Positions 101-10,819 of a stretch of DNA of 10,819 nucleotides are shown piece after piece. Position numbers and translations under genes: made by a program. The notes under the pieces were generated by a model that saw nothing but the letters and a program-made list of their open reading frames with translations, did not search any database and was not told the DNA's origin. How positions within the stretch are numbered: the stretch's first letter is position 1; each line of letters starts with the position of its first letter. This stretch comes from a virus (taxonomy: Duplodnaviria > Heunggongvirae > Uroviricota > Caudoviricetes), in the IMG/VR virus record IMGVR_UViG_2778261301_000013. One strand, 5' to 3'.

Positions 101-454
101 TCAGCGACGACGGCTGGCGGCAGGTGGTTGCCCCCGGTTGAGCCAGAGATAACAACTCCCTCCGTCATCCGGAGAAACACGGTCCACCCAGAACATCTCG
201 CCGTTAATGGTCAGCGTGTCACCACGCCGTACAGCACAAACCGTATCCGTAAGCACAAATAATGACGGGTTACTTCCTTCAATACGGATCCCACTACTGG
301 CAAAACCCAGCGACTCCGGATCGTCAAAAACGCCATGAACCTCGCCGCCACGCTGTGCACCGGAGGTGAACTGCGCACTGATGCCCATCACTTCAACAAT
401 CGTACTGTCCACCCCGGCAAGGGCGGCATCAAAGGCATTCTGAAAATCACGCAT
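101..454 (-). CDS. FII: Head-tail joining protein FII-like (117 aa)
   Basis: Part of six-frame ORF 101..490. Translation from the ATG at 454 (MRDFQNAFDAALAGV...GVFDDPESLGFASSGIRIEGSNPSLFV...FWVDRVSPDDGGSCYLWL) aligns along its length with lambda gpFII as recalled and gives the same length. The ATG at 454 lies 8 nt upstream of the FI stop (447), suggesting translational coupling. The longer ORF start at 490 is not supported by the lambda alignment. Confidence 0.88.
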   Translation of the reverse strand: MRDFQNAFDAALAGVDSTIVEVMGISAQFTSGAQRGGEVHGVFDDPESLGFASSGIRIEGSNPSLFVLTDTVCAVRRGDTLTINGEMFWVDRVSPDDGGSCYLWLNRGQPPAASRRR

Positions 455-821
455 AAACAGCCATTCCACCATCAACGTGTGTTTTTGCATCTGAGGACAT
501 AATCAGAATCACCCGACCAACATCCGCAAGCTCAACGGATTCCCCCGTTTCACCATCAACGCCACAGAGATGGAGGCAGGTCAGAACTCTGATGCGCGTT
601 AACGCGCCGGATGTTTCCTCACGAACATCATGAGCCGCGGTTTCCCGCTCCCGGATATCCATATTCATAACCTGTACATCATCGCCGGATGACTGCATTT
701 CCTCTTCCCATTCTGCCACCCGCTGCGCTATCTCTGCGGCACTCCCGGATATATCCGGCTCACGCCCCAGAATCAGGGCCAGTTCATCAAGCCGTTTCAG
801 ATTTTGCTCTTTCGTTGCCAT
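447..821 (-). CDS. FI: DNA packaging / head assembly protein FI-like (124 aa)
   Basis: Part of ORF 447..869. Start chosen at the ATG at 821 (MATKEQNLKRLDELALILGRE...), preceded by GGGGG about 6 nt upstream and lying after the E-FI hairpin. The N-terminal third resembles lambda gpFI as recalled; the C-terminal part is divergent. Position between E and FII matches lambda synteny. Confidence 0.7.
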   Translation of the reverse strand: MATKEQNLKRLDELALILGREPDISGSAAEIAQRVAEWEEEMQSSGDDVQVMNMDIRERETAAHDVREETSGALTRIRVLTCLHLCGVDGETGESVELADVGRVILIMSSDAKTHVDGGMAVYA

Positions 822-835
822 ATCAGCCCCCTGTG

Positions 836-864
836 AAAAAAGACACGGGGGCATTTCGCCCCCG
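836..864 (-). terminator. Intrinsic-terminator-like GC hairpin plus U-tract between E and FI
   Basis: Minus-strand RNA reads CGGGGGC-GAAAU-GCCCCCG (7 bp GC stem, 5 nt loop; plus-strand 846..864), followed after 4 nt by UUUUUU (plus-strand A-tract 836..841). It sits 9 nt after the E stop codon and about 15 nt before the FI start. Confidence 0.45.
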
Positions 865-872
865 CTCACGGA

Positions 873-1901
873 TTATTTCACCTGTACCACCACAAACTCA
901 TCCGGGTCCGGCAACACCATCAGCGGCGCGGACTGCGTCATGGTAAATTCACGGGCGGGATCCCCTACCGTCAGCCAGTGTTTCGGATAACGGGAAGAGG
1001 CCACCACACCTTCGGACAACGCCTGAGCATCCTGAATGGCACCGTAACAACGGATCCCATCTGCAGCAGTATTCCCCAGAACCAGCATGCCATCTGGAAG
1101 ATAACGTTTTTCGATACCGTCTTCTGCTATATAAGACGTTTTCGCCACCACAATGGCCAGATCGCCGTAATACCCCTTGAAGGACACCACTGCGCCCAGA
1201 TCTTTCACTGCCGTTTCGAGTTGAGAATTTGAACCGCGACGGGTATCCAGTTTTTCGCGGAACAGCTTAAAACCATTCAGAAGACGCCAGACGGTACCGT
1301 CCATAATGGCAATATTCACAAGACCGCTGGCCTGGTCGCAGTAGAGGTCAATATCATGTGTAGGATCGAACGTGTCACGATCCTGTTTTGACCACTCCTT
1401 ACCACCACCCTGAGTGATGTTATTCTTCGTCGACCTGCCAAAATCGACCTCAATTTTCTCGAACTGGTCTCCTTCCATGGTGTATTTGCCATACAACACA
1501 GCATTTACCGCCTGCATTTCTTCCACCTGGACAATCGCGTGCTCTTCCTGTTTGAGGTTATCGGTAATGATACGCAGACGGCGGTAAGCCGGATCATTCA
1601 GTTGAGATGGATCTTCACCAGGAAGGCGCTCAACCGCCTGCTGGTAATTAAATTCGTGTTTCGGCTTGACGTAGCCCGGACGCAACACGCGGGTTTCACC
1701 ACCACGATGACGCAGCACTTTTCCTTCAACAACCGGGGAGACATAGGCCGCCACCGGCGTTTTTCCGGTAATTTTGTCCAGCATCACCTCTTCGGTATGG
1801 AAATTCACCGTACGGCGGAAAAACAGCTCCAGAAACAGCGCACGAAATTTAACTTTTTGTTCGGTATAACCGAGTAACTGGCGGGTCGTAAACAATCCCA
1901 T
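873..1901 (-). CDS. E: Major capsid protein E-like (342 aa)
   Basis: ORF 873..1901 with ATG at 1901 and an AAAGGAA SD-like motif 7 nt upstream. Translation (MGLFTTRQLLGYTEQKVKF...PGYVKPKHE...AIVQVEEMQAV...KLDTRRGSNSQLETAVKDLG...TVGDPAREFTMTQSAPLMVLPDPDEFVVVQ) is collinear with lambda gpE as recalled, with many identical blocks and nearly the same length. Confidence 0.95.
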   Translation of the reverse strand: MGLFTTRQLLGYTEQKVKFRALFLELFFRRTVNFHTEEVMLDKITGKTPVAAYVSPVVEGKVLRHRGGETRVLRPGYVKPKHEFNYQQAVERLPGEDPSQLNDPAYRRLRIITDNLKQEEHAIVQVEEMQAVNAVLYGKYTMEGDQFEKIEVDFGRSTKNNITQGGGKEWSKQDRDTFDPTHDIDLYCDQASGLVNIAIMDGTVWRLLNGFKLFREKLDTRRGSNSQLETAVKDLGAVVSFKGYYGDLAIVVAKTSYIAEDGIEKRYLPDGMLVLGNTAADGIRCYGAIQDAQALSEGVVASSRYPKHWLTVGDPAREFTMTQSAPLMVLPDPDEFVVVQVK

Positions 1902-1930
1902 AAATCAGTTCCTTTCATTCAGAAATCAGT

Positions 1931-1950
1931 CAGGCCACCGCGGTGGCCTG
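1931..1950 (-). other. Perfect 20 bp palindrome (CAGGCCACCG|CGGTGGCCTG) in the D-E intergenic region; potential RNA hairpin
   Basis: Directly visible at 1931..1950 between the D stop (1959) and E start (1901). It would form a 9-10 bp GC-rich stem in the late mRNA. No clean U-tract follows (ACUGAUUUCUG), so it is not a classic intrinsic terminator. Confidence 0.4.
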
Positions 1951-1958
1951 ATAACGTG

Positions 1959-2306
1959 TTACGGCAGCGCCGCGTGACTCAGGGCACTGCCAGCAAAGGC
2001 GTTGGCCTTTTTGTGTTCATCCACACTTTCAGGCCAGTGGATTGCCTCCGTCGCAAAGGTTCCCGACTTGTAATACGTCAGCGCCGTCTCTGTGCCGTCA
2101 AGCGGCAGTACCAGTATGCCAACCGCACTACCGGCTTTCTGTCCGTCCCAGACCACCAGTTTCCCGGTGGCTTCATCCAGCATCAGGGGCGTCAGTGCCG
2201 GTGTTGGCGAGGAAATCCCGCTGCTGCCTGTGGCGGTATGAGCCGGATCATTACCGGCAAAAATACGTACTTCCGCACGCTGTTCAGTGATGGTTTTCGT
2301 CACCAT
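1959..2306 (-). CDS. D: Head decoration protein D-like (115 aa)
   Basis: ORF 1959..2306 with ATG at 2306 and AGGAGGT SD 7 nt upstream. Translation (...NDPAHTATGSSG...TPLMLDEATGKLVVWDGQKAGSAVGILV...YYKSGTF...WPE...FAG) matches lambda gpD blocks (SDPAHTATAPGG, TPLMLDTSSRKLVAWDG, FYKSGTF) as recalled. Confidence 0.92.
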   Translation of the reverse strand: MVTKTITEQRAEVRIFAGNDPAHTATGSSGISSPTPALTPLMLDEATGKLVVWDGQKAGSAVGILVLPLDGTETALTYYKSGTFATEAIHWPESVDEHKKANAFAGSALSHAALP

Positions 2307-2342
2307 ATTGTAAAAACCTCCTATTGATGGTCAGCACTGGCT

Positions 2343-2945
2343 TCATGGCATGGCCATGAGCATTTTCACGTCCGCATCACCATCTGCTGACGTCTGTGGC
2401 ACGCCACCCTGTACCGCTGCCGGTGAATGGTTCGCCATGAAATGTTCAAACATGGCGGTTGTGGATGCAGAGACCGGTTCTGCCTTACCTGATCCCGCAG
2501 CCAGCACAGCCCGGGCGCTCTCCACAGTCATTCCCGGGCAGGCAGCCAGCTGTTCAGCCTGCACCTCAGCCCCTTTTGCCTCATCCAGTGCCATGATCTG
2601 ATCACGGAGTGATGGTCCGGCATCCGCCTGCGGTGAAGCAGCCAGGATCGGGCGGGCTTTTTCCACCGTCATCTCCGGCATCGCCGCCAGTGTTGCCGCC
2701 AGTTGTTCACGACCGTTCGCTTCTTCACACGCCATAATGCGATCGGCTTCACTCTGCGTGGATGCCACCGGCTGCTGCGGTGCCGCCGCGGCCAGAATCG
2801 CCCGGGCCTGTTCAACGCTCATGCCCTGTTGTCCTGCCAGCATCGTGGCAAGCTGTTCACGTCCTTTCGCTTCCTGGCATGTCAGGATCCCCATCACTCG
2901 CTGGTTCTCCTGCGCGGCGGCTTCCGTTGCAGTTAATTGCGGCAT
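2343..2945 (-). CDS. Nu3: Nu3-like scaffolding protein from an in-frame internal start within C (200 aa)
   Basis: In-frame ATG at 2945..2943 (codon 302 of C, MPQLTATEAAAQ...) is preceded by a strong AGGAGG 4 nt upstream (minus-strand GTCAGAGGAGGCACT-ATG). In lambda, Nu3 is made from an internal in-frame start in C at the corresponding place (lambda ...GGRMTKETQ; here ...GGTMPQLTA). Inference from sequence plus lambda precedent. Confidence 0.6.
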   Translation of the reverse strand: MPQLTATEAAAQENQRVMGILTCQEAKGREQLATMLAGQQGMSVEQARAILAAAAPQQPVASTQSEADRIMACEEANGREQLAATLAAMPEMTVEKARPILAASPQADAGPSLRDQIMALDEAKGAEVQAEQLAACPGMTVESARAVLAAGSGKAEPVSASTTAMFEHFMANHSPAAVQGGVPQTSADGDADVKMLMAMP

Positions 2946-3848
2946 AGTGCCTCCTCTGACATTACTGTTCAGCGCCGTGGCCATCACACTGATGGCATCC
3001 GACGCATTGATTAATTCATCCGCCAGCCCGGCCTCAATGCCGGACTGACCTTCAAAAACGGCGGCCTCTGTTCCCGTGACTGCATCAACAGACAGACCGG
3101 TAAACATCGCCACTTTTTCGGCAAACATCCGGCGCGCCGCATCAATCCGCTGCTGCATGTCCTGGCGAACCTCTGCCGGCAACGCTTCAAACTGATTGCC
3201 ATCCACCTTGTGCGCCCCTGAGTAAATCAGCGTGATATCCACACCGGCCTGCGCCAGATGACCGGCATAGCTGACATGGCTCATCATCACGCCAATGGAA
3301 CCGATACGGGATGTCTGGGTAACCAGCCGTCGGGAGCAGGCCGACGCCAGCAGCATGGCTGCAGAACAGGCCGTGTCATTGCACAGTGCCCAGACCGGCT
3401 TCTGCTGACGGAGGCGGTAAATCATGTCAGCGCAGTCAAACGCGCCGGCGGCCTGCCCGCCCGGACTGTCAATGTCCAGCAGTACGCCCCGCACCTGGCT
3501 ATCCGCCATTGCCTGCTGAAGACAGGCGACAATACCGTCATAGCCTGTCATTCCGGAAAATGGCCGCATACCACCCAGCCGGTGCACCAGCGTGCCGGTC
3601 ACCGGCAGTACAGCAATACCGTTCACCACCCTGTAAACACGGGCAGGTCGTTTACCTCCGGCCATGTACTCGTCCGTTTCAGCCAGCATTCCGGGAGCAT
3701 CAAACTGTACCTGCTGTTGTGGTACCGAAAGACTTGCTGCCCCCATCTCGCGCCCGAGCGCGCAAAAGAAAACCCGCGCATAGGCGGGCTCCAGAAGCAG
3801 CGGTTCATTGAATGCTGCGGCAATAATGTGTGAAAGATTACGTCTCAC
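2343..3848 (-). CDS. C: Head maturation protease / minor capsid protein C-like (S49/ClpP-type protease domain with C-terminal scaffold-like region), 501 aa
   Basis: ORF 2343..3848. N-terminal two thirds are collinear with lambda gpC as recalled (AFNEPLLLEPAYARVFFCAL, NGIAVLPVTGTLV, GMTGYDGI, LLDIDSPGG, AGAFDCADMI, KPVWAL, SRRLVTQTSRIGSIGVMM, ITLIYSGAHKVDGN, TEAAVFEGQ...AGLADELIN). The start is GTG at 3848 (no in-frame ATG nearby) and overlaps the end of B by 11 nt. The start codon assignment is less certain than the gene call. Confidence 0.92.
   Translation of the reverse strand: MRRNLSHIIAAAFNEPLLLEPAYARVFFCALGREMGAASLSVPQQQVQFDAPGMLAETDEYMAGGKRPARVYRVVNGIAVLPVTGTLVHRLGGMRPFSGMTGYDGIVACLQQAMADSQVRGVLLDIDSPGGQAAGAFDCADMIYRLRQQKPVWALCNDTACSAAMLLASACSRRLVTQTSRIGSIGVMMSHVSYAGHLAQAGVDITLIYSGAHKVDGNQFEALPAEVRQDMQQRIDAARRMFAEKVAMFTGLSVDAVTGTEAAVFEGQSGIEAGLADELINASDAISVMATALNSNVRGGTMPQLTATEAAAQENQRVMGILTCQEAKGREQLATMLAGQQGMSVEQARAILAAAAPQQPVASTQSEADRIMACEEANGREQLAATLAAMPEMTVEKARPILAASPQADAGPSLRDQIMALDEAKGAEVQAEQLAACPGMTVESARAVLAAGSGKAEPVSASTTAMFEHFMANHSPAAVQGGVPQTSADGDADVKMLMAMP
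2469..2897. repeat. Three tandem in-frame copies of a roughly 47-codon module within the C/Nu3 C-terminal region
   Basis: Protein-level repeats visible in the ORF translation: (1) IL/VMGILTCQEAKGREQLATMLAGQQGMSVEQARAILAAAAPQ, (2) IMACEEANGREQLAATLAAMPEMTVEKARPILAASPQ, (3) IMALDEAKGAEVQAEQLAACPGMTVESARAVLAAGSG. Boundaries approximate. Confidence 0.7.
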
Positions 3849-5430
3849 GTGGTGTTGTCTCCTCTTCCGGCCTGCGACTCTCCGCTATCTGCTGCTGATA
3901 CGCCTGCGCTATCCACACCGGACGTGAGAGTCCGGCTTTTTGCCGCTCAGCAGATTCCCTGACCTGCTGGCGGAAAATGTCCTGATAATCCTCGCCCATC
4001 AGCGCCAGCTCTTTCTCATACGTGCTCAGTCCGGCCTCAATGCGCATCACTGATTCCTGGACTTCCTTGAGCCCGTCAATGGCCATTCTTCCGGCACCAA
4101 TCCACTCTGCCCGTGACCAGGCTGATCGCGCCTGATAAAAATCAAAACGTGCCCGTGGCGGACGAATAATCCCCCGAAGAAGTGCCTCTTCCAGCCAGCA
4201 GGAAAACATCTGCGTGGCCAGCCGGGCCGCAATAAATTTTCGCCGCCCCATAAAATAGCGCCACGACTCATTGGCGGAGGCGCGGGCACTTGAGTAACTG
4301 ACCTTCGAGTAATCACGGGACAACTGTTCGTAGGAAACGCCAAGACCGGCGGCGATATACCGCAGCAGCGCCTGTTCAAGCGCAGAAAATCCATTGTCTG
4401 AATCCTGCGCAGTCTGTAGTTTCAGATCATCACCAGGGAAAAGGTGCGGAATTTTGACACCGCCCAGTGTCACGTTATTCGTGTCATACCAGCTGGAGAA
4501 CTTCTCCAGAATATTAATAAGCGGATTATCCTTCTGCTCCTGTGGCGCGCCGGCGATATATTCAAAGGCCTTTTCGGTATCAAGTTCACTTTCAATCGTC
4601 GCTGCATACATCGCCTTCACTATGGCCGACTGAAGCTGTGTTGCCTGCAGGGAATCGAGCATCTTCAGCCGTTCCATGACGCTGTAAAACTGATTAGCCC
4701 CACGGGTCTGCCCGTCCTCCACCGGCTCGAAAATATGCAGCATGGCCGGACGCCCGGTGGGAAGTTCACGCGGGATCCGTTCCCATCGTCCACTACCAGA
4801 GAACGGAAAATCATCCTCACAGATATGGTACGCGACGGCACGGCCATATCGATCGACCTCCACACCGGCCCGCAGAAAACGGTTCCCCATACCGTGTCCA
4901 GGCGTGTCCACCCGTTTCGGACTCACGGCTTTAAAACGCGTACGGAATAACTGCGTGGTTTCCGTATCCCAGACCGGCTGCACAAAGATTTCGCCGTTAA
5001 ACGCATGAACGCCCACACCTTCACGGATAAATTCCGTGAACGTGCGTTTTCCTTCCACGTCGATCTCGCCAAACATCCCTTCGGCGTATTCCGACCAGGC
5101 CGCCTCCACCTCATCGACAAAGCTTTTTGCTGCGGTCTCCCGCATCCCCAGCCAGCGCCAGTTCGGACGGTAGCTGATCAGAAACATATGCCCGACAATG
5201 TGATCCTTATGCAGAGCCACCGCATTAGCCGCTATTCCGTTATTGCGCACCAGATCATCTGCCCGGGCATTCCCCAGACGCAACGCGGGCAGCAGGGCCG
5301 CATCGGCACTCTGCGCCGGTGGCAACCACTCAGCCATTTGCCCGCCAAATCCTGCACCGCCCCCGTTGTAGCTGAGACTCTCACGAAGCGGAACGCCGTT
5401 CACATCAATCAGGACAGGCGTTCGTTTCAT
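3838..5430 (-). CDS. B: Portal protein B-like (530 aa)
   Basis: ORF 3838..5430 with ATG at 5430, overlapping the W stop as ATGA. Translation is collinear with lambda gpB as recalled (GNARADDLVRNNG, FEPVEDGQTRGAN.FYSVME, LQSAIVKAMYAATIESELDT, LLRYIAAGLGVSYEQLSR, SARASANESW.YFMGRRKF, WIGAGRMAIDGLKEVQE, EAGLSTYEKE) with similar length. Confidence 0.95.
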   Translation of the reverse strand: MKRTPVLIDVNGVPLRESLSYNGGGAGFGGQMAEWLPPAQSADAALLPALRLGNARADDLVRNNGIAANAVALHKDHIVGHMFLISYRPNWRWLGMRETAAKSFVDEVEAAWSEYAEGMFGEIDVEGKRTFTEFIREGVGVHAFNGEIFVQPVWDTETTQLFRTRFKAVSPKRVDTPGHGMGNRFLRAGVEVDRYGRAVAYHICEDDFPFSGSGRWERIPRELPTGRPAMLHIFEPVEDGQTRGANQFYSVMERLKMLDSLQATQLQSAIVKAMYAATIESELDTEKAFEYIAGAPQEQKDNPLINILEKFSSWYDTNNVTLGGVKIPHLFPGDDLKLQTAQDSDNGFSALEQALLRYIAAGLGVSYEQLSRDYSKVSYSSARASANESWRYFMGRRKFIAARLATQMFSCWLEEALLRGIIRPPRARFDFYQARSAWSRAEWIGAGRMAIDGLKEVQESVMRIEAGLSTYEKELALMGEDYQDIFRQQVRESAERQKAGLSRPVWIAQAYQQQIAESRRPEEETTPRET

Positions 5431-5633
5431 AACCTCACTCCCAGCGGACGACGGCGACGCCGGGTTGTCCCCAGTACCGACTCCGCATCATTGATCGCCC
5501 GGTTAAGCTCATCCAGAGAAGCCGCCGTATATTCAATTCTGCGACCATCTTTCTGGACAGACACCACCCGTTTACCGGTTAATAAATCAAGGCGCGCCTG
5601 ACGCAGCGCCTGCAGTTCAGCGACTGTAACCAT
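5427..5633 (-). CDS. W: Head-tail joining / head completion protein W-like (68 aa)
   Basis: ORF 5427..5633 with ATG at 5633 and GGAGGAG SD upstream. Translation ([40 protein letters not shown]...RRRRRP) matches lambda gpW as recalled (same length; TGKRVATVQKDGRRVEFTA). Start overlaps the end of A by 17 nt. Confidence 0.93.
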   Translation of the reverse strand: MVTVAELQALRQARLDLLTGKRVVSVQKDGRRIEYTAASLDELNRAINDAESVLGTTRRRRRPLGVRL

Positions 5634-7545
5634 TCACTCCTCCGGACAGCTTCGCTGCCAGTTCTTTAAGGGTTGGCCGGGTCGTCTCTTCTTCCCGGGA
5701 TTTTGCCAGTACAGCCAGATCAAGCTGCCAGCGTTGCACGGACACACGTAATGCCGCGTAGGCATACACCAGGCAGTCCAGCGCTTCGTTACGCCGCTTT
5801 TTGTTATCCCACAGCAGACGCATCTTTCCTTTTTCCCACTTCTCCACAAGCTCTTCCGCGACCAGTTGCTGCGCCTCTGTCTGCGAAAAAATCTCCGGAT
5901 CATCAGGAAAACGGATGGCATACGACGTGGCTTCATCCACAGGCGTGGGATCGGCTTTCATACGGGCATAGAGAATTTCTTTTGCGGTGTCCGTCCCCAC
6001 TTCACACAGATACACGCCCCGCTGATTGCGGGTTTTTGGCATGGTGATCACCGGCTTGCCATAGACAGATGCGCCTTTTATCGGCAGCACCCGGAAAACA
6101 CCATGTTTTTTTGACCTCTGATAAACGATTTCGCCATCGATCCCCCCGATGTCCCAGCAGACACGAGAAATAGTCATTTCGGTTCCGTCTGCATGGCGGT
6201 ATTTTTTGTTGATCGCCGCATCCACACGTAACAGCGTCTCTTCCTCATCGGGACGCCCCATAATGATGATTTTATCCACCAGAAAGGCTTCCTCTCCCGG
6301 AGCCCATCCCCAGACATACATCTCAAAACGGTTTCGCTGCGAGTCAATGCCCGCCGTCAGATAAACCACCCGGGCAGGCACCGCCGCCGTGTAACGCACA
6401 ACCTTATCCATCAGTACCTGGTGATCGAGTTTTTCGCCCACGGCCTCTTCCCAGGTCTCGCCCAGCGTGGTGTTCACAAAGGTTTTCAGGCCGTTGGGAT
6501 CTTTCAGTGCATCCAGCCAGTCATAGACAATCTGTACCCATGTGGTGAACGGACTGTACGCCGTCCAGATATGGAAAGTGATGGAGCGCGGCGGCGGAAT
6601 TTCATCACCCCGGGCGCTGAAAAACATCAGGCCGTCACGGGTCCACATGCCCGTGTTTTCACAGATCCACCGCCCGTTACTCTGGTCAAGCTCAGACTGA
6701 TGGATCACACAGCCATGATGCTCACAAAGGTAGAAAACACTTTCTGGCTTATTCTTCTCCCACTTAAGACCGAAAGGCGAGGCATCATCGCCAAATTTCA
6801 GATACTGCTCCTCCCCACAGTGCGGACAGGGCACATAAAAACGCATGAAGTGTGCCGACTCGTTAGCGGCTTTTTCGATCTGGCAGGAGCCTTTGATTTT
6901 AGGCGTCGAGCCGCGAATGGATTTTGGCCATACAGAGCCCTCAATACGTTTATCCCCCAGCAGGGTTGGCGAACCCTCTTTTTCAACATCCGGTTCGAAC
7001 GAGGAAAGCTCGTCATAACAGACCACATCCACGGATTTTTCACGGTAGTTTTTTGCTGCCGCACCACCCAGACACCAGAACCCCACACCGGAGGAAAAAC
7101 GCTTCAGGGTGAGCGTATTATCGCGGTGTTTTCTTCCGAACCATGGAGCCAGCTCCAGCAATGCAGGAACATCCCTTATCGTTGGCTCAACATGAGATTT
7201 CATAAAATCTTCAGCAGCTGAGTCCGTGGGCTGAAAAAGAAGGCTGTTGCGTGATTTATGCTCAATAAAATAAGCCTCCACTCCCAGCAACATCTTTGTA
7301 TAACCAACACGGGCAGATTTAATCAGGTTAACCGTGCGAATCAGATCGTTGCCCATACAGTTCATGATGCCAACCTGAAACGGCAGTGTTTCCCACCGCC
7401 CCGGGGTATAAGACGACTCTTTAGGAAGGTAATAATGTTTATTGGCCCACTGAACTGTCGTCAGTGGAACAGGAATAATGAGAGATAAAAGCCCTGTAGC
7501 TATCGCACCGGCTGCATTAGCTGCCTTCTGCGCGTCTGAAATCAT
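5617..7545 (-). CDS. A: Terminase large subunit A-like (642 aa from the ATG at 7545; six-frame ORF extends to 7587)
   Basis: ORF 5617..7587. From [21 protein letters not shown] onward it is collinear with lambda gpA as recalled, including the Walker-type region, [16 protein letters not shown] and the C-terminal nuclease-domain blocks. Start preferred at the ATG at 7545 (MISDAQ...): it gives the lambda-like N-terminal length, has a GGGTGGA SD-like motif upstream, and overlaps the Nu1 3' end by 29 nt as in lambda. The ATG at 7587 has no SD. Confidence 0.95.
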
Positions 7546-8065
7546 CGATCCACCCGCCCACGTTTTCACCGGCCTTAGCTGCAACATTGGAGGCTTTCGC
7601 GATTTCAGTTTTCACCACATCAAGGTGTGATGGTGAAATGTCCGGATATTTACGCTGTAATGTCAACGGCACACGCACAAGTATCCCCGAAATCTCCTGT
7701 GCCACACGTTGCAGAATGAAGGTAAACAGTTCAGTTTCCAGCACTACTCCGTCTTCACGGGCATTTTTCAGTTCCTGCGCATCTGCCTGCGCTTTTGTGA
7801 GCCTGTAGCGTTCATAGTCAATGGTGCCGGGTTGTAAATCTGACTCCGCTGCCGCACGCAAATCGTCCAGTTCTTTGCGGAGCTTTTCGTTTTCGATATC
7901 AGTTTCCCTCTGCGCATACCACTGAATTGCCATGGCAGTATCAAATACAGATTCAATGCCCTTACTACCTTTGGAGGCGCAAGGGAGTCCCTGAGACTGC
8001 CAGCGTTCAATCGTCCGCGGGTCCACGTTGAAAATTTCGGCAAGCCTCTTTTTATTAACCTTCAT
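7517..8065 (-). CDS. Nu1: Terminase small subunit Nu1-like (182 aa)
   Basis: ORF 7517..8065 with ATG at 8065. Translation ([28 protein letters not shown]...[47 protein letters not shown]) is collinear with lambda gpNu1 as recalled (MEVNKKQLADIFGASIRTIQNWQEQGMP...). First gene downstream of cos, as in lambda. Confidence 0.93.
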
Positions 8066-8241
8066 GAAAACAACCCATTATCAAATACAAGGCCCGACAT
8101 GAAAACGCCAGAAAAAGGCATTTTCGGACACTTTCATGTCGGACCTTTACGGATGAAATATTAAAAAAAACAAAAAGTTATATTCGAGAAGTACCGACAC
8201 GATTTTCCCTGAAAAATTTTCATAAATAGTGAAAAACCGCG
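8066..8241. promoter_or_regulatory. cosB-like terminase-binding region between cosN and Nu1, with three candidate small-subunit binding sites and an A/T-rich putative IHF bend site
   Basis: The first 35 nt on the Nu1 side of cosN (minus-strand CGCGGTTTTTCACTATTTATGAAAATTTT) match the lambda left end as recalled, then the sequence diverges. CCGACA occurs at 8094..8099 and 8194..8199 (same orientation, exactly 100 bp apart) with an inverted copy TGTCGG at 8137..8142, mirroring the lambda R1/R2(inverted)/R3 layout but with a different motif. A/T-rich segment with an A8 run at 8146..8190 lies between the distal and middle sites. Confidence 0.65.
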
Positions 8242-8253
8242 AGGTCGCCGCCC
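8242..8253. other. cosN: 12-nt cohesive-end sequence (minus-strand GGGCGGCGACCT)
   Basis: Plus-strand aggtcgccgccc at 8242..8253 is the exact reverse complement of the lambda 12-nt cohesive end GGGCGGCGACCT, flanked by lambda-like sequence on both sides (minus-strand ...GGTTACG|GGGCGGCGACCT|CGCGG...). Confidence 0.85.
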
Positions 8254-8287
8254 CGTAACCTGTCGGATCGCCGGAAAGGACCCACCA
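8254..8287. other. cosQ-like region (phage right-end sequence adjacent to cosN)
   Basis: Minus-strand GGTGGGTCCTTTCCGGCGATCCGACAGGTTACG closely matches the lambda right-end sequence as recalled (GGGTCCTTTCCGGTGATCCGACAGGTTACG), which contains cosQ. Confidence 0.7.
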
Positions 8288-8378
8288 AAAATGATAATGA
8301 TTGTCAAATACGTTTATCACACTGATATTCAGAATCACTACTGAAAGACTCCCTTTGTGGTGCGCGAGGGATGCGCAT

Positions 8379-8405
8379 AAAAAAACCACCAGCAAATGCC
8401 AGTGG
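8379..8405 (-). terminator. Intrinsic terminator candidate downstream of the 134-aa ORF
   Basis: Minus-strand RNA CCACUGGC-AUUU-GCUGGUGG (8 bp stem including two G-U pairs, 4 nt loop; plus-strand 8386..8405) followed immediately by UUUUUUU (plus-strand A7 at 8379..8385). The stem pairs better in the minus-strand transcript than in the plus-strand one. Located about 60 nt after the stop at 8466. Confidence 0.5.
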
Positions 8406-8465
8406 CTAGAGATATTCATTGCGAATAACCATCACAAAACAACTTAACTCGTGAGGGTAGAAATT

Positions 8466-8870
8466 TTACTCGAGGCCAAATTTCTTCTTTAAATAGGCCT
8501 TCGTTAACTCCAGCCCAACATCTTTGATTGTACTCAAAGGGGCATCGCTCATTGACTTTAATTTCTCAAAAACCGTAGGTTCATTTAATGCCTGGGCGAA
8601 TTCTTGTCCCTGCGCAGATAGTCGCACGTCGGTACCCATATCTAGCATATGGCCACAATGGCGCATGTAGCCCAGTTTAGTTATGTCATCCGTTATTAGA
8701 TCTTTATTACTGATATAACCTTGCTCAATAAGAAGTAGATAATGAAACATCCCTTCATTCGAGCAGATATCGTACCCCGCATTAGCTAAGTCTTTTGTAG
8801 ATATAAAGGGAGTTTTCGCTTTCAAAAATACCTCAAGCATCCCCTTCATGTATTCTAAATTTTTAACCAC
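8466..8870 (-). CDS. Hypothetical protein, 134 aa, in AT-rich accessory block; no family recognised
   Basis: ORF 8466..8870. GTG start at 8870 preceded by a near-perfect SD (minus-strand TAAGGAGGTTTTT-GTG). Translation MVKNLEYMKGMLEVFLKAKTPFISTKDLANAGYDICSNEGMFHYLLLIEQGYISNKDL... The N-terminal half has a helix-turn-helix-like / winged-helix-like pattern, a weak impression only. Own candidate promoter and terminator. Confidence 0.65.
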   Translation of the reverse strand: MVKNLEYMKGMLEVFLKAKTPFISTKDLANAGYDICSNEGMFHYLLLIEQGYISNKDLITDDITKLGYMRHCGHMLDMGTDVRLSAQGQEFAQALNEPTVFEKLKSMSDAPLSTIKDVGLELTKAYLKKKFGLE

Positions 8871-8930
8871 AAAAACCTCCTTAGGATAATTGGAGGTCTA
8901 GAATACCGTTTGCAAGCACGTTGATAAATC

Positions 8931-8939
8931 ATTATCACA
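8931..8939 (-). promoter_or_regulatory. Candidate extended -10 promoter element (minus-strand TGTGATAAT) for the 134-aa ORF
   Basis: TGnGATAAT on the minus strand about 60 nt upstream of the GTG start. No good -35, which is acceptable for extended -10 promoters. Overlaps an imperfect palindrome (8936..8961). Pattern-based only. Confidence 0.3.
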
Positions 8940-9005
8940 GGCACTCAATGAATGCCTGCTGTAATTGCGTACGGTAATGAACGTAAAAAACCGCCCGAGG
9001 TATAT

Positions 9006-9230
9006 TTAGACATTAGATGGCGCTTTGTCAGTATAGACCCGGTACGCCCTGACAAACATCCCGTTACATTCAGAGTCCGCCTTGATATACGCCAATTCGT
9101 AACCCCGATGCTTTAGCTCTTCACGAGCTCTTTTCTCTTCCTTAGCCATGAAGTTAAGATCTTTAATTTCTGAGTAGGTATATGTTCCCACTATAAAATC
9201 TCTGCCTGGCCGTCCATTTATCAGCTCCAT
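9006..9230 (-). CDS. Hypothetical small protein, 74 aa (possible N-terminal extension to 9365 giving 119 aa); no family recognised
   Basis: Six-frame ORF 9006..9365 begins with GTG with no SD. The internal ATG at 9230 is preceded by GGGAGGA (minus-strand TTTTTGGGAGGACAC-ATG), so the 74-aa product MELINGRPGRDFIVGTYTYSEIKDLNFMAKEEKRAREELKHRGYELAYIKADSECNGMFVRAYRVYTDKAPSNV is preferred. The upstream in-frame region resembles sequence found after the stop of the 93-aa gene, so it may be a gene remnant. Confidence 0.5.
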   Translation of the reverse strand: MELINGRPGRDFIVGTYTYSEIKDLNFMAKEEKRAREELKHRGYELAYIKADSECNGMFVRAYRVYTDKAPSNV

Positions 9231-9247
9231 GTGTCCTCCCAAAAAGT

Positions 9248-9323
9248 TGGTAGTCAGAACATACCATGCTAAGCGAGGTGAAAGCACCTTTATCAAGCCC
9301 CCCGCAGATAGACTTTGTAATGG
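9248..9323. repeat. Diverged direct repeat, copy A (partner at 9681..9743)
   Basis: Plus-strand tggtagtcagaacatacc...ttatcaagccccccgcagatagactttgtaatgg aligns with copy B, tggtggcccagaataaattccggtttcattatcaagcccacccgtaaatgggctttgtaatgg. Shared blocks are TGGTNG..CAGAA, TTATCAAGCCC and CTTTGTAATGG; copy A carries an extra roughly 23 bp and one extra C in the C-run (9298..9303). Confidence 0.6.
9258..9266 (-). promoter_or_regulatory. Candidate extended -10 promoter element (minus-strand TGGTATGTT) for the 74-aa ORF
   Basis: TGnTATGTT on the minus strand about 28 nt upstream of the ATG at 9230, leaving room for a short leader containing the GGGAGGA SD. No convincing -35. Pattern-based only. Confidence 0.25.
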
Positions 9324-9680
9324 AGAGTCATTGAGTAGTTCTCGTAATTCTTTGATTTTCCGCACACTCGTGCAGAAGGAGTTCCCCGTCGGGCTACGGT
9401 CATGGTTAATGCGGGAATACAGCGACGATACAGCGCATGATGTGTCAGGCTTGAATACCTTTATCCGTTAAAAGGGATATCAGTTAAGTTACACCGTGTA
9501 GGGTATAAGCCATTGTCGAGACCACTCATTGAATGGCCTCTGCAATAACCGATGTCTTTCCATCAGTCCGCCACCACAAAGAATCTTTTTTGCCTTAAGG
9601 CAGGAGCTTCATCTTTCAGTGGCTGCCAGTGTTATTTCCCCACTTACTGGCTTGGGTTGTTTCGTGGTACTGCCGTTAAC

Positions 9681-9743
9681 TGGTGGCCCAGAATAAATTC
9701 CGGTTTCATTATCAAGCCCACCCGTAAATGGGCTTTGTAATGG
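9681..9743. repeat. Diverged direct repeat, copy B; begins immediately after the stop codon of the 93-aa ORF (minus-strand sense)
   Basis: See copy A. On the minus strand copy B contains a 7 bp inverted repeat AAGCCCA-TTTACGGG-TGGGCTT. Confidence 0.6.
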
Positions 9744-10025
9744 CTACTTCACTTTTGCTTTTGCTTTTGCTTTTGCTTTTGCTTCCGCTCGCTTACGCCG
9801 GCGCTCTTCTTTCCTCTCGGCTTTTGCCATGTCCATGAATGCCTGCATGATCGAGTTCCGCATCATGTAGCTAACAAAGTGATGATTGACACAGCCGTTG
9901 AGGCGCAGCTGCTCGCCAAACTCATCCACCGAGGCCAATGCTTCCATCATGCCCTTCTCGCCTTTCATGAACTCTGAGAAGTCGCGCCCCGCTCTGGAGG
10001 CGCATTCAATGACACGATCACTCAT
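9744..10025 (-). CDS. Hypothetical protein, 93 aa, with a strongly basic C-terminal tail ending in an (Ala-Lys)n repeat
   Basis: ORF 9744..10025. Its ATG at 10025 overlaps the stop of the upstream KilA-N-like ORF as ATGA (10022..10025), suggesting translational coupling. Translation MSDRVIECASRAGRDFSEFMKGEKGMMEALASVDEFGEQLRLNGCVNHHFVSYMMRNSIMQAFMDMAKAERKEERRRKRAEAKAKAKAKAKVK. No family recognised with confidence. Confidence 0.65.
   Translation of the reverse strand: MSDRVIECASRAGRDFSEFMKGEKGMMEALASVDEFGEQLRLNGCVNHHFVSYMMRNSIMQAFMDMAKAERKEERRRKRAEAKAKAKAKAKVK
9753..9782. repeat. Hexanucleotide simple sequence repeat (TTTTGC)5 on the plus strand = (GCAAAA)5 on the coding strand, encoding AKAKAKAKAK
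   Basis: Five perfect tandem hexamers visible at 9753..9782, followed by a degenerate sixth (ttccgc). Lies within the 3' end of the 93-aa ORF, in frame. Confidence 0.9.
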
Positions 10026-10519
10026 CCCGGAAGCCCGGGGATCGTAATCTGCAGCTGGTTAGCCAGGGAGTTAATCTCAGCGACCAACACTGGCTTCGTA
10101 TAGCGCCATGCTGCCAGCCCTTGTCCGCAGAAGCTCGCCATGTCTTTCTTCTGGTCAAACTCATGACATTTCATGTTGAGCTGCGCACTTAAGCTGTTGC
10201 GATGCTGAAGTTCTCCGGTGAAGTAGTCATCGAGGACTTTATAGGCCGCGTACTTGAACCCGGGGTTTAACCAAGCCGCATAATCGTAAGCAACAAACTT
10301 CCCGCCATATGTTCCACCGTGTACACCGCGCTCAGTAAAAACCACAGATTCGTGGTTTTTCTCCAGCTCGGCTAAGAACTCTTTGGTCTGCTTGTTTCGC
10401 AGGTAGTGGTAAGGCGATTCAGATTCACTTTTACCACTGGCTTTCCACATATCAGTGAGGCAGATCATGCCATCTTCACCGATACGAATTGGTTGATTGA
10501 AGAGGGTTAATGATTTCAT
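10022..10519 (-). CDS. KilA-N domain-containing protein (165 aa), putative DNA-binding
   Basis: ORF 10022..10519 with ATG at 10519. Translation MKSLTLFNQPIRIGEDGMICLTDMWKASGKSESESPYHYLRNKQTKEFLAELEKN...GVHGGTYGGKFVAYDYAAWLNPGFKYAAY shows the characteristic KilA-N/APSES-type pattern (hydrophobic run + TD..KA.GK, then TKEFL, then GT....VA.DYA.WL.P.F). Assigned from recalled family features, not a search. Confidence 0.7.
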   Translation of the reverse strand: MKSLTLFNQPIRIGEDGMICLTDMWKASGKSESESPYHYLRNKQTKEFLAELEKNHESVVFTERGVHGGTYGGKFVAYDYAAWLNPGFKYAAYKVLDDYFTGELQHRNSLSAQLNMKCHEFDQKKDMASFCGQGLAAWRYTKPVLVAEINSLANQLQITIPGLPG

Positions 10520-10634
10520 AGCGTGTACCTACTCTTTGAAATGAACCTTTGCCGCACAGGAAACCAGCCCACCGAGGCTCGCCAGCACTAACTGGTATCC
10601 TCAAAGGCCCATTCCAAAGGGGCAGGTTCGGTGT

Positions 10635-10688
10635 AAAAAACATGCGTTGCGGTACGCATTTATTGCAAAAAGCCCCGCATCGCGAGGC
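10635..10688 (-). terminator. Two tandem intrinsic terminator candidates between the Rz stop and the KilA-N-like ORF
   Basis: Distal: minus-strand RNA GCCUCGC-GAU-GCGGGGC (7 bp stem; plus-strand 10672..10688) followed by UUUUU (plus-strand 10667..10671). Proximal: AUGCGU-ACCGCA-ACGCAU (perfect 6 bp stem; plus-strand 10642..10659) followed by G then UUUUUU (plus-strand 10635..10640). Confidence 0.5.
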
Positions 10689-10720
10689 TCATTAAATGGA
10701 CTTTGTGATTTGCAAAAAAA

Positions 10721-10819
10721 TTATTTCAGGCATTGCGTCCTGATGTATTCCTGCAGGTAGTTAACCTGCGCGGTTATCTTGTCGATTCCACTTCGGAGAC
10801 GGTAATAATTGAGTTCAGC
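10721..10819 (-). CDS. Rz: Rz-like i-spanin, C-terminal 32 codons only (gene runs off the window end)
   Basis: Minus-strand frame ending at TAA (10723..10721) translates ...AELNYYRLRSGIDKITAQVNYLQEYIRTQCLK*, resembling the lambda Rz C-terminus as recalled (...RDYFTLRERLITMQKQLEGTQKYINEQCR*). Position upstream of cos on the late strand fits. Short partial sequence, so moderate confidence. Confidence 0.55.
   Translation of the reverse strand, partial: AELNYYRLRSGIDKITAQVNYLQEYIRTQCLK
10774..10818 (-). CDS. Rz1: Possible Rz1-like o-spanin C-terminus embedded in the +1 frame of Rz (last 14 codons)
   Basis: Alternate minus-strand frame reads ...LNSIITVSEVESTR* with its stop inside Rz, reminiscent of the lambda Rz1 C-terminus (...PLNGIISPSERG*) and of the embedded Rz1 arrangement. 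Very short; weak evidence. Confidence 0.3.
   Translation of the reverse strand: MNSIITVSEVESTR

Follow-up and report, generated by a model that had tools for sequence, protein, structure and literature searches.

What fills the interval between the lysis genes and the packaging site of a lambdoid phage, and by what route is its content exchanged? The question is raised by a 10,819-nt stretch of DNA from a virus of the Caudoviricetes (IMG/VR record IMGVR_UViG_2778261301_000013; hereinafter the window), which carries a lambda-type late region on its minus strand, with the 3′ end of Rz, a block of accessory genes, cosN, Nu1, A, W, B, C, D, E, FI and FII in that order. The interval from the Rz stop codon (10723-10721) to cosN (8253-8242) measures about 2.47 kb. 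The classical cargo of this slot is bor in lambda and ybcV/ylcI in DLP12, and it is here that lambdoid phages carry much of their unexplained and fast-turnover cargo, including in pathogens, as a part of the present block occurs in E. coli O104:H4. The original prediction, made from the sequence alone, saw a compositionally distinct and terminator-bounded insert at a known cargo position, with defence, exclusion or lysogenic conversion as its usual functions. We propose instead that the interval is probably a late-operon accessory slot made of independently exchanged units, in which short hairpins would serve both as RNA elements and as linkers, and in which the cargo would consist of DNA-binding regulators.

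Exchangeable units between Rz and cos

The four late-strand open reading frames (ORFs) foreseen for the interval are present on the minus strand at 10519..10022 (165 aa), 10025..9744 (93 aa), 9365..9006 (119 aa) and 8870..8466 (134 aa), and all four genes are intact with Shine–Dalgarno sequences. The third was rightly recognized as a gene but over-called in length, as the PHROG 6100 profile covers only residues 46-119 of the 119-aa product, a GGAGG precedes the ATG at 9230 by 5 nt, and the homologues are without exception 74 aa long; the real gene thus spans 9230..9006 on the minus strand and codes for a 74-aa protein.

Judged by sequence comparison, the interval is a real variable cargo slot in which several small cassettes have been swapped independently, and at least three independently assorting units take the place of the single terminator-bounded insert of the original prediction. 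The whole block, at a coverage of at least 80%, is found in 5 of 5,426 complete E. coli genomes, as compared to 389 of them for the pair of the 165-aa (KilA-N) and 93-aa genes, and 35 for a rare 1.04-kb insert (again at a coverage of at least 80%, with 99.7–99.9% identity) that extends to the O104:H4 outbreak strains. In these E. coli genomes cos and Nu1 always adjoin the rare insert, but its upstream context is of three different kinds. In related prophages with the same flanks the cargo is replaced by ybcV (DUF1398) and ylcI/ynfO on the opposite strand. Such prophages match the window over 10819..9351 with 98.6% identity and then only over 8306..8158 around cos; since homology ends at 9351 and resumes at 8306, positions 9350..8307 on the minus strand (1,044 nt; 41.7% GC) constitute a discrete replacement, which holds the 74-aa gene, a hairpin (H4, see below), the 134-aa gene and a terminator. 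The homology of the O104:H4 strains to the window begins at 9323. The individual genes of the insert also travel: homologues of the 74-aa protein (82–83% identity) occupy the same slot beside different neighbors (DUF6694, or DUF6953/DUF2158), and those of the 134-aa protein are found in the same slot of a Klebsiella HK97-type phage, a Pectobacterium prophage and a Yersinia phage. Comparison across related prophages thus bears out a lambdoid cargo position of variable content: the block is not invariant, and its four proteins do not all correspond to core phage functions.

The terminators expected at 10635..10688 and 8379..8405 are found at 10690-10642 and 8407-8384. The former are two tandem intrinsic terminators directly 3′ of Rz (10642..10694, minus strand; −21.5 kcal/mol jointly, z = −2.3), namely a 9-bp stem followed by U5 at about 10690-10665 and a second stem followed by U6 at 10659-10642. 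The latter (8384..8407, minus strand; 10-bp stem and U7; −13.9 kcal/mol, z = −3.3) comes after the 134-aa gene, lies inside the limits of the rare insert and moves with it. The AT-rich insert is a discrete element with its own terminator, but the block as a whole is not a single terminator-bounded one. A similar division holds for composition. The estimated GC content of roughly 43% for 8466-9480 is right (42.7%), while the figure of about 58% for the head genes is slightly high (55.0% over 101-7587, with 50.3% in their lowest 1015-nt window). The AT-rich part spans from about 9350 through cos to about 8100 and includes the 1.04-kb insert; the KilA-N/93-aa pair, at 50.3%, is not deviant.

One carrier of the insert, E. 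coli CT282, has the insertion sequence IS100 (IS21 family; locus positions 2113-3914) precisely in the gap that separates H4 from the 134-aa gene; the match to the window returns at the start codon of that gene, which is annotated there as 10 codons shorter.

The boundary hairpin and the conserved spacer

A hairpin of about 40 nt with the form (G)CAUUA-CA-stem-loop-stem-GA-UAAUG(C) stands at the cassette boundaries in three clear copies and one degenerate copy, all on the minus strand. H1 (9703..9744; 31.1 bits with our covariance model R1, E = 1.7e-6; −17.0 kcal/mol, z = −4.9) begins at the stop codon of the 93-aa gene (0-2 nt) and differs from the other copies in its loop. H2 (9507..9549; 63.5 bits, E = 2.5e-15; −22.6 kcal/mol, z = −5.6) lies within a conserved spacer. 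H4 (8926..8968; 62.7 bits, E = 4.1e-15; −17.2 kcal/mol, z = −4.1) is placed 37 nt past the stop codon of the preceding gene, and its 3′ arm reads TGTGATAAT, resembling an extended −10 element 55 nt before the 134-aa gene. H3 (9284..9324), at the upstream edge of the rare insert, is a direct repeat 81–93% identical to H1 that is no longer a good hairpin (6.5 bits; fold z = −0.4). In both cassettes of the rare insert, the hairpin precedes the following start codon by about 55 nt. H2 and H4 align without gaps and share their apical sequence, with three pairs of the inner stem changed on both sides. Phi80 and many Klebsiella phages share a 36-nt core of H4 at 97% identity, placed 5 nt past rha in the former and 3 nt past a DUF2560 gene in the latter.

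The structure is backed by covariation. A pattern scan of IMG/VR recovered the hairpin at 119 or more loci in viral contigs, reducing to 34 distinct 43-mers, against which we tested a model of two stems with a 6-bp outer stem, a 2×2 internal loop (CA/GA) and a 7-bp inner stem. The modelled pairing holds in 96.4% of cells as compared to 80.2% in shuffles, none of 500 of which reaches the observed value, and falls to 26–49% when the 3′ partner is slid by 1-3 columns. Compensatory double changes occur at 7 of the 13 pairs, with 70 double-change cells against 24.9 expected. The wobbles are asymmetric, 50 cells being G.T and 6 being A.C (pairing would be 86.4% with the opposite strand folded), and the folded strand is thus the gene strand. 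In keeping with this, 117 of 119 copies share the orientation of the local coding strand. We considered a double-stranded-DNA operator and rejected it, as the stems covary and the loop varies from 8 to 17 nt, which would alter the half-site spacing.

The hairpin is restricted in its placement. Across the whole of phi80, the whole of P22 and 50 kb of the matching E. coli prophage, R1 hits fall only between Rz and terminase; a regular-expression-plus-complementarity scan gave 192 hits in real loci and none in shuffles, and never hits on both strands of one locus. Copies lie 0-15 nt past the stop codons of unrelated genes coding for Rha, spanin, a 65-aa acidic protein, small membrane proteins and others; in some loci a copy precedes an HNH gene by 17-21 nt, and in several hosts the start of a 74-aa or 134-aa gene by 53-57 nt. 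A type-B variant is found in Yokenella, Buttiauxella, Pectobacterium and a further Enterobacteriaceae genome. Two copies are present in 58 loci, in spacing classes of 160-162, 212-219, 275-277 and 546 nt, and up to three co-oriented copies flank single genes. Among the loci examined, the clearest arrangement of a gene plus hairpins as a cassette is that of the DUF2560-type genes (78-81 aa; relatives of P22 ORF80), which have co-oriented hairpins on both sides, about 275-310 nt apart, in nine loci. Homology breakpoints cluster at the hairpin edges, at 9742-9749/9707 (H1), 9527/9497-9502 (H2), 9322-9323/9290 (H3) and 8965/8930 (H4).

Between the 93-aa and 74-aa genes, the 513 nt at 9743..9231 are non-coding and, taken as a whole, fold with z = −3.7. 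A hidden gene was considered here and rejected, as codon periodicity is absent, a 21-codon ORF is frame-shifted in relatives, and the Chlobot plus-strand ORFs are unsupported. Within this spacer, a highly conserved element of about 240 nt (9455..9700, minus strand) encloses H2 and is represented by 66 distinct sequences of at least 93% identity from HK97, mEp234, P22, Sf6-like and lambda-type loci and many IMG/VR contigs. Its predicted fold has multiple stems, its variable sites lack the 3-nt periodicity of codons, and with all the copies at least 93% identical it is too conserved for covariation to be assessed. The element might encode an RNA or be regulatory. The DUF2560 and HNH genes that come after the spacer in P22 and HK97 relatives are missing from the window. 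Neither the conserved spacer nor the hairpin comes near the gathering score of any family in Rfam 15, the best matches being Proteo-phage-1 at 16.8 bits (threshold 42) and P9 at 15.1 bits (14.2 on re-run; threshold 43); a Ysr202 3′-end match of 12 bits (threshold 315) was not reproduced on a narrower window. In the searchable literature we found neither the hairpin sequence, including among P22-like late-operon stem-loops, nor a functional description of it. The boundary hairpin and the ultra-conserved spacer are the parts of the locus that look undescribed.

The sequence after the Rz stop codon (AATCACAAAGTCCATTTAA...GCAATAAATG; 10715-10752 and 10696-10712, minus strand) looks like the outer 5′ and 3′ portions of the hairpin, the inner stem being replaced by that of the first terminator (R1 8.1 bits, not significant); the resemblance may reflect a degenerate copy or hint at kinship between hairpin and terminator.

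The cargo proteins

The first gene of the block (10022..10519, minus strand) codes for a 165-aa protein identical to WP_000839225.1. The KilA-N domain recognized from the start is confirmed (PF04383, E = 1.3e-15, 57.6 bits against a gathering cut-off of 23.8), and it is accompanied by an ORF11CD3 domain (PF10549, E = 2.4e-13, 50.5 bits against a cut-off of 25). The protein matches phrog_129, 'transcriptional regulator', at 2.7e-61, and its C-terminus also matches the Rha-like phrog_518 and antirepressor PHROGs, placing it in the Bro/Rha/antirepressor network. The Bro network is a domain-swapping grouping of these Pfam domains (PMC10111431). The gene holds the post-Rz position taken by rha in phi80 and P22 (ORF201), and shares both position and domain network with the HK97 gp73 region and hkbK/hkbL of HK620; it differs from the post-Rz rha genes in having KilA-N rather than Phage_pRha as its N-terminal domain and in being coupled to a 93-aa partner. 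The latter (phrog_875; 9744..10025, minus strand) is translationally coupled through an ATGA overlap of its start with the KilA-N stop codon. Its family comprises 138 clusters, each labelled 'hypothetical' and each derived from Enterobacteriaceae prophages, with an HK97 protein included. The (Ala-Lys)n tail of the protein is encoded by a (GCAAAA)n hexanucleotide repeat (9752-9789, minus strand); the homologues are 85-93 aa long, which suggests that slippage drives variation in the length of the tail.

The 74-aa protein (phrog_6100), predicted to adopt an alpha+beta fold, belongs to a family with only five protein clusters in 5.8 billion sequences, and its gene is annotated by RefSeq/PGAP in none of the three records examined. 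Divergence of the gene is biased to third codon positions.

The 134-aa protein (phrog_585; 8466..8870, minus strand) has a GTG start with AAGGAGG 5 nt upstream and appears to be a winged-helix protein divergently related to DUF2513 (PF10711). A profile built from 12 of its close relatives finds 218 proteins with full-length homology. In turn, 36 of the 46 sampled and aligned relatives hit PF10711 (best E = 2.6e-13), and a Klebsiella homologue is annotated as DUF2513. The fold of the family is predicted confidently, and the modelled H-H-H-beta-wing topology superposes on solved winged helix-turn-helix (wHTH) proteins, with a likeness to those of the MarR/PadR/HxlR/TubR type. A ligand pocket and a MarR-type arrangement of dimer helices would be putative. 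A sequence search of the PDB with the protein gave no match. The searchable literature describes no function for DUF2513, which is mentioned there once, incidentally, nor for DUF2560 or for the proteins under their accessions.

That three of the four proteins are unassigned stands in the sense of an assigned function: Pfam, NCBIfam and PADLOC yield no significant family for the 93-, 74- and 134-aa proteins. In PADLOC-DB 2.0 the 74-aa and 134-aa proteins have no match, the 93-aa protein matches only QatB, with E = 0.014, and the KilA-N protein has a 31-residue domain-level match to the candidate system PDC-S22. No enzymatic, membrane or toxin domain was found in the 74-aa and 134-aa proteins. 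The cargo genes add new members to families that, though known, are uncharacterised. With no known defence, toxin or conversion family matching, the suggestion of defence, exclusion or conversion cargo finds no positive evidence, a sobering outcome that leaves two predicted DNA-binding proteins and two small unknowns. The cargo with recognizable folds is DNA-binding (KilA-N and wHTH), so that DNA-level regulation or interference would be the most likely activity; our best guess from these predicted folds is that the cargo consists of DNA-binding regulators, and not of enzymes or effectors of known defence systems.

Proposed working of the slot, analogues and alternatives

In lambda the late transcript from pR′, made terminator-resistant through Q, begins with S, R and Rz and continues past cos into Nu1. 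As this transcript must cross the interval to reach Nu1 and A, the co-oriented genes are all expected on the late message despite the terminators, and all four would thus ride the Q-antiterminated transcript. We envisage the slot as comprising a unit with the Bro/Rha-type DNA-binding protein (KilA-N and ORF11CD3) and its coupled 93-aa partner, a gene-less conserved spacer common to P22 and HK97 relatives, and the rare AT-rich insert with the 74-aa protein, the DUF2513-type winged-helix protein and its own terminator. The hairpins would fold in the late message and act between genes in 3′-end protection, processing, stability or insulation. Being islands of near-identity of 35-40 nt between unrelated genes, they might also offer crossover points for recombination of the Red/RecET type, which would keep the slot plastic across the lambda-type, HK97/HNH-type and P22-type packaging modules. 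The KilA-N and winged-helix proteins would act as DNA-binding regulators. The 1-kb insert, because it has its own terminator, may in addition be expressed from the prophage.

The closest analogue of the hairpins appears to be the PeSL motif of T4-type phages, a composite promoter/stem-loop that marks the boundaries of cassettes in hyperplastic regions and has been proposed to bring about the shuffling of modules through homologous recombination (PMC2839356, PMC4122927). Both are short conserved stem-loops between variable small genes that form islands of homology among unrelated sequences, with homology breakpoints at the motif, and a part of the hairpin (GATAAT) resembles a −10 element. However, the present hairpins are of unrelated sequence, occur in temperate lambdoid and P22-like phages of Enterobacterales, lie in a late rather than an early operon, and have covarying stems with a conserved internal loop and outer stem; any promoter or exchange role for them is putative.

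REP/BIME elements of E. coli operons and the RNase III sites of T7 are plausible mechanistic analogues, being co-oriented stem-loops after stop codons in a long polycistronic transcript. The T7 sites are made of two stems split by an internal loop, as in the present hairpin. On the other hand, REP elements have no sequence relation to it, and with only 13 modelled bp it is shorter than typical RNase III substrates.

Several points weigh against the reading of the slot that we favor. The extent of pairing, which reaches at most 16 bp when the inner stem is extended in the minimum-free-energy fold, is less than would be expected of a classical RNase III site, and the hairpin has no U tract. Its RNA-level role would follow solely from the G.U asymmetry and the orientation, and its variants amount to perhaps 8-12 lineages, meaning that the independent events behind the covariation are modest in number. 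The largest breakpoint cluster (9460; 73 high-scoring segment pairs), together with those at 9685 and 9351, lies away from the hairpins, which therefore are not the sole points of exchange; the breakpoint loci were moreover picked for containing the hairpin, which biases that analysis. As for the cargo, the 134-aa protein itself reaches no Pfam threshold, with no direct match to PF10711 at E ≤ 1, and its matches to wHTH structures in a Foldseek search of the PDB are weak (best E = 0.02). Finally, autonomous expression as a moron would account better than pure late read-through for the terminator of the insert and for the TGTGATAAT in H4.

This last point leads to the possibility that the AT-rich insert, or even the whole block, is a prophage-expressed moron conferring superinfection exclusion, anti-phage defence or lysogenic conversion. 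With the lambdoid morons (lambda bor; DLP12/Qin ybcV-ylcI/ynfO) the cargo shares the slot, a patchy presence (35 of 5,426 genomes, with ybcV/ylcI between identical flanks in others), a deviant composition over 8307-9350 (41.7% against 55.0% GC), though not in the KilA-N pair, and a strong downstream terminator of its own; the near-identity of so rare an insert across unrelated E. coli lineages including O104:H4 suggests recent spread, and a winged-helix repressor-like protein could silence an incoming phage. Yet the cargo lies on the late rather than the opposite strand, its proteins are unrelated to Bor, YbcV and YlcI, and the domain and PADLOC searches described above turned up neither effector domains nor defence matches for the 74-aa and 134-aa proteins. 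Upstream of the four genes, the two of the insert included, no sigma-70 promoter-like site on the gene strand passed the scan threshold, and autonomous moron-type expression is therefore unproven, late read-through from pR′ being at least as likely. The only candidate promoter, the extended −10-like motif in H4, has a TG that derives from the hairpin stem and is missing from other hairpin lineages, and late-transcribed regulators such as rha fill the same slot in other phages. We accordingly regard such a moron as unlikely. A toxin–antitoxin or similar obligate pair formed by the 74-aa and 134-aa genes is scarcely credible: they are indeed small, adjacent and on the same strand, are never apart in the 35 E. 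coli genomes, and include a helix-turn-helix protein as is typical of type II antitoxins, but 74-aa homologues are found without any DUF2513 relative and DUF2513-like homologues without the 74-aa gene, 135 nt with a boundary hairpin separate the two, and IS100 lies between them in the viable genome of CT282. We reject this pairing on the ground that each gene occurs without the other in other phages.

The hairpins, for their part, could be selfish or passive DNA, whether miniature palindromic repeats, relics of terminators or folded single-stranded sites for a recombinase as in attC or REP, with the covariation reflecting constraint on a DNA hairpin. DNA hairpins tolerate G.T wobbles too, the copies appear as isolated homology islands, up to three of them surround single genes as in a cassette array, and one possible degenerate copy is merged with the first post-Rz terminator (at the non-significant 8.1 bits). 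Nevertheless, no transposase or integrase is associated with the slot in the loci examined, the hairpin is confined to this slot in the genomes scanned rather than being genome-wide, and its near-uniform co-orientation and position just after stop codons suit a role at the transcript level, so that we consider this explanation improbable. That the block is functionless, decaying filler of pseudogenes and recombination scars between two essential modules seems very unlikely. The 513 gene-free nucleotides, the degeneracy of H3 and the loss of the DUF2560/HNH genes from the spacer would suit it; against this, the four ORFs are intact with their Shine–Dalgarno sequences, the 74-aa gene diverges chiefly at third positions, the 134-aa family has its 218 relatives and a confidently predicted fold, and the identity of the spacer across 66 distinct sequences is above that of neutral DNA in such mosaic genomes.

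The slot with hairpins as RNA elements and linkers and with regulators as cargo thus being our preferred reading, we tentatively raise a bolder form of it, which we consider possible but doubtful. Here the hairpin would be a dedicated and undescribed cassette-boundary element of temperate Enterobacterales phages and the slot a gene-cassette array, with every small accessory gene bringing a hairpin that both shapes its mRNA within the late transcript, through 3′-end formation, stability or insulation of translation, and serves as a crossover among P22-, HK97-, phi80- and lambda-type phages; the large exchangeable pool of cassettes would include the 74-aa and DUF2513-like genes, and the 240-nt spacer could be an RNA gene belonging to it. 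If true, hairpin-punctuated cassettes would provide a testable mechanism for the plasticity of this hotspot across phages with unrelated packaging machinery, and the hairpin would be a sequence handle for cataloguing the pool of cassettes in prophages and metagenomes. Experimenters would likewise gain a structured RNA/DNA motif that is new and a family of 74-aa genes that lacks annotation.

The flanks of the slot are those of a lambda-type late region. The 3′ end of the spanin gene Rz (10721..10819, minus strand) has a translation ending in ...QVNYLQEYIRTQCLK*, and the matching records annotate it as 'lysis protein' or Rz. On the other side, cosN (GGGCGGCGACCT; 8242..8253, minus strand) is a single exact match with a chance expectation of 0.01, and the first gene past the slot is the Nu1-type terminase small subunit (7517..8065, minus strand), an ORF call with the same annotation in the matching record. 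Between cosN and the Nu1 start, an inverted repeat of 27 nt with 81% complementarity and a 5-nt spacer at 8089-8147 is presumably part of cosB or of a terminase-binding region. A promoter-like site is present on the minus strand at 8320-8291, between the cargo terminator and cosN.

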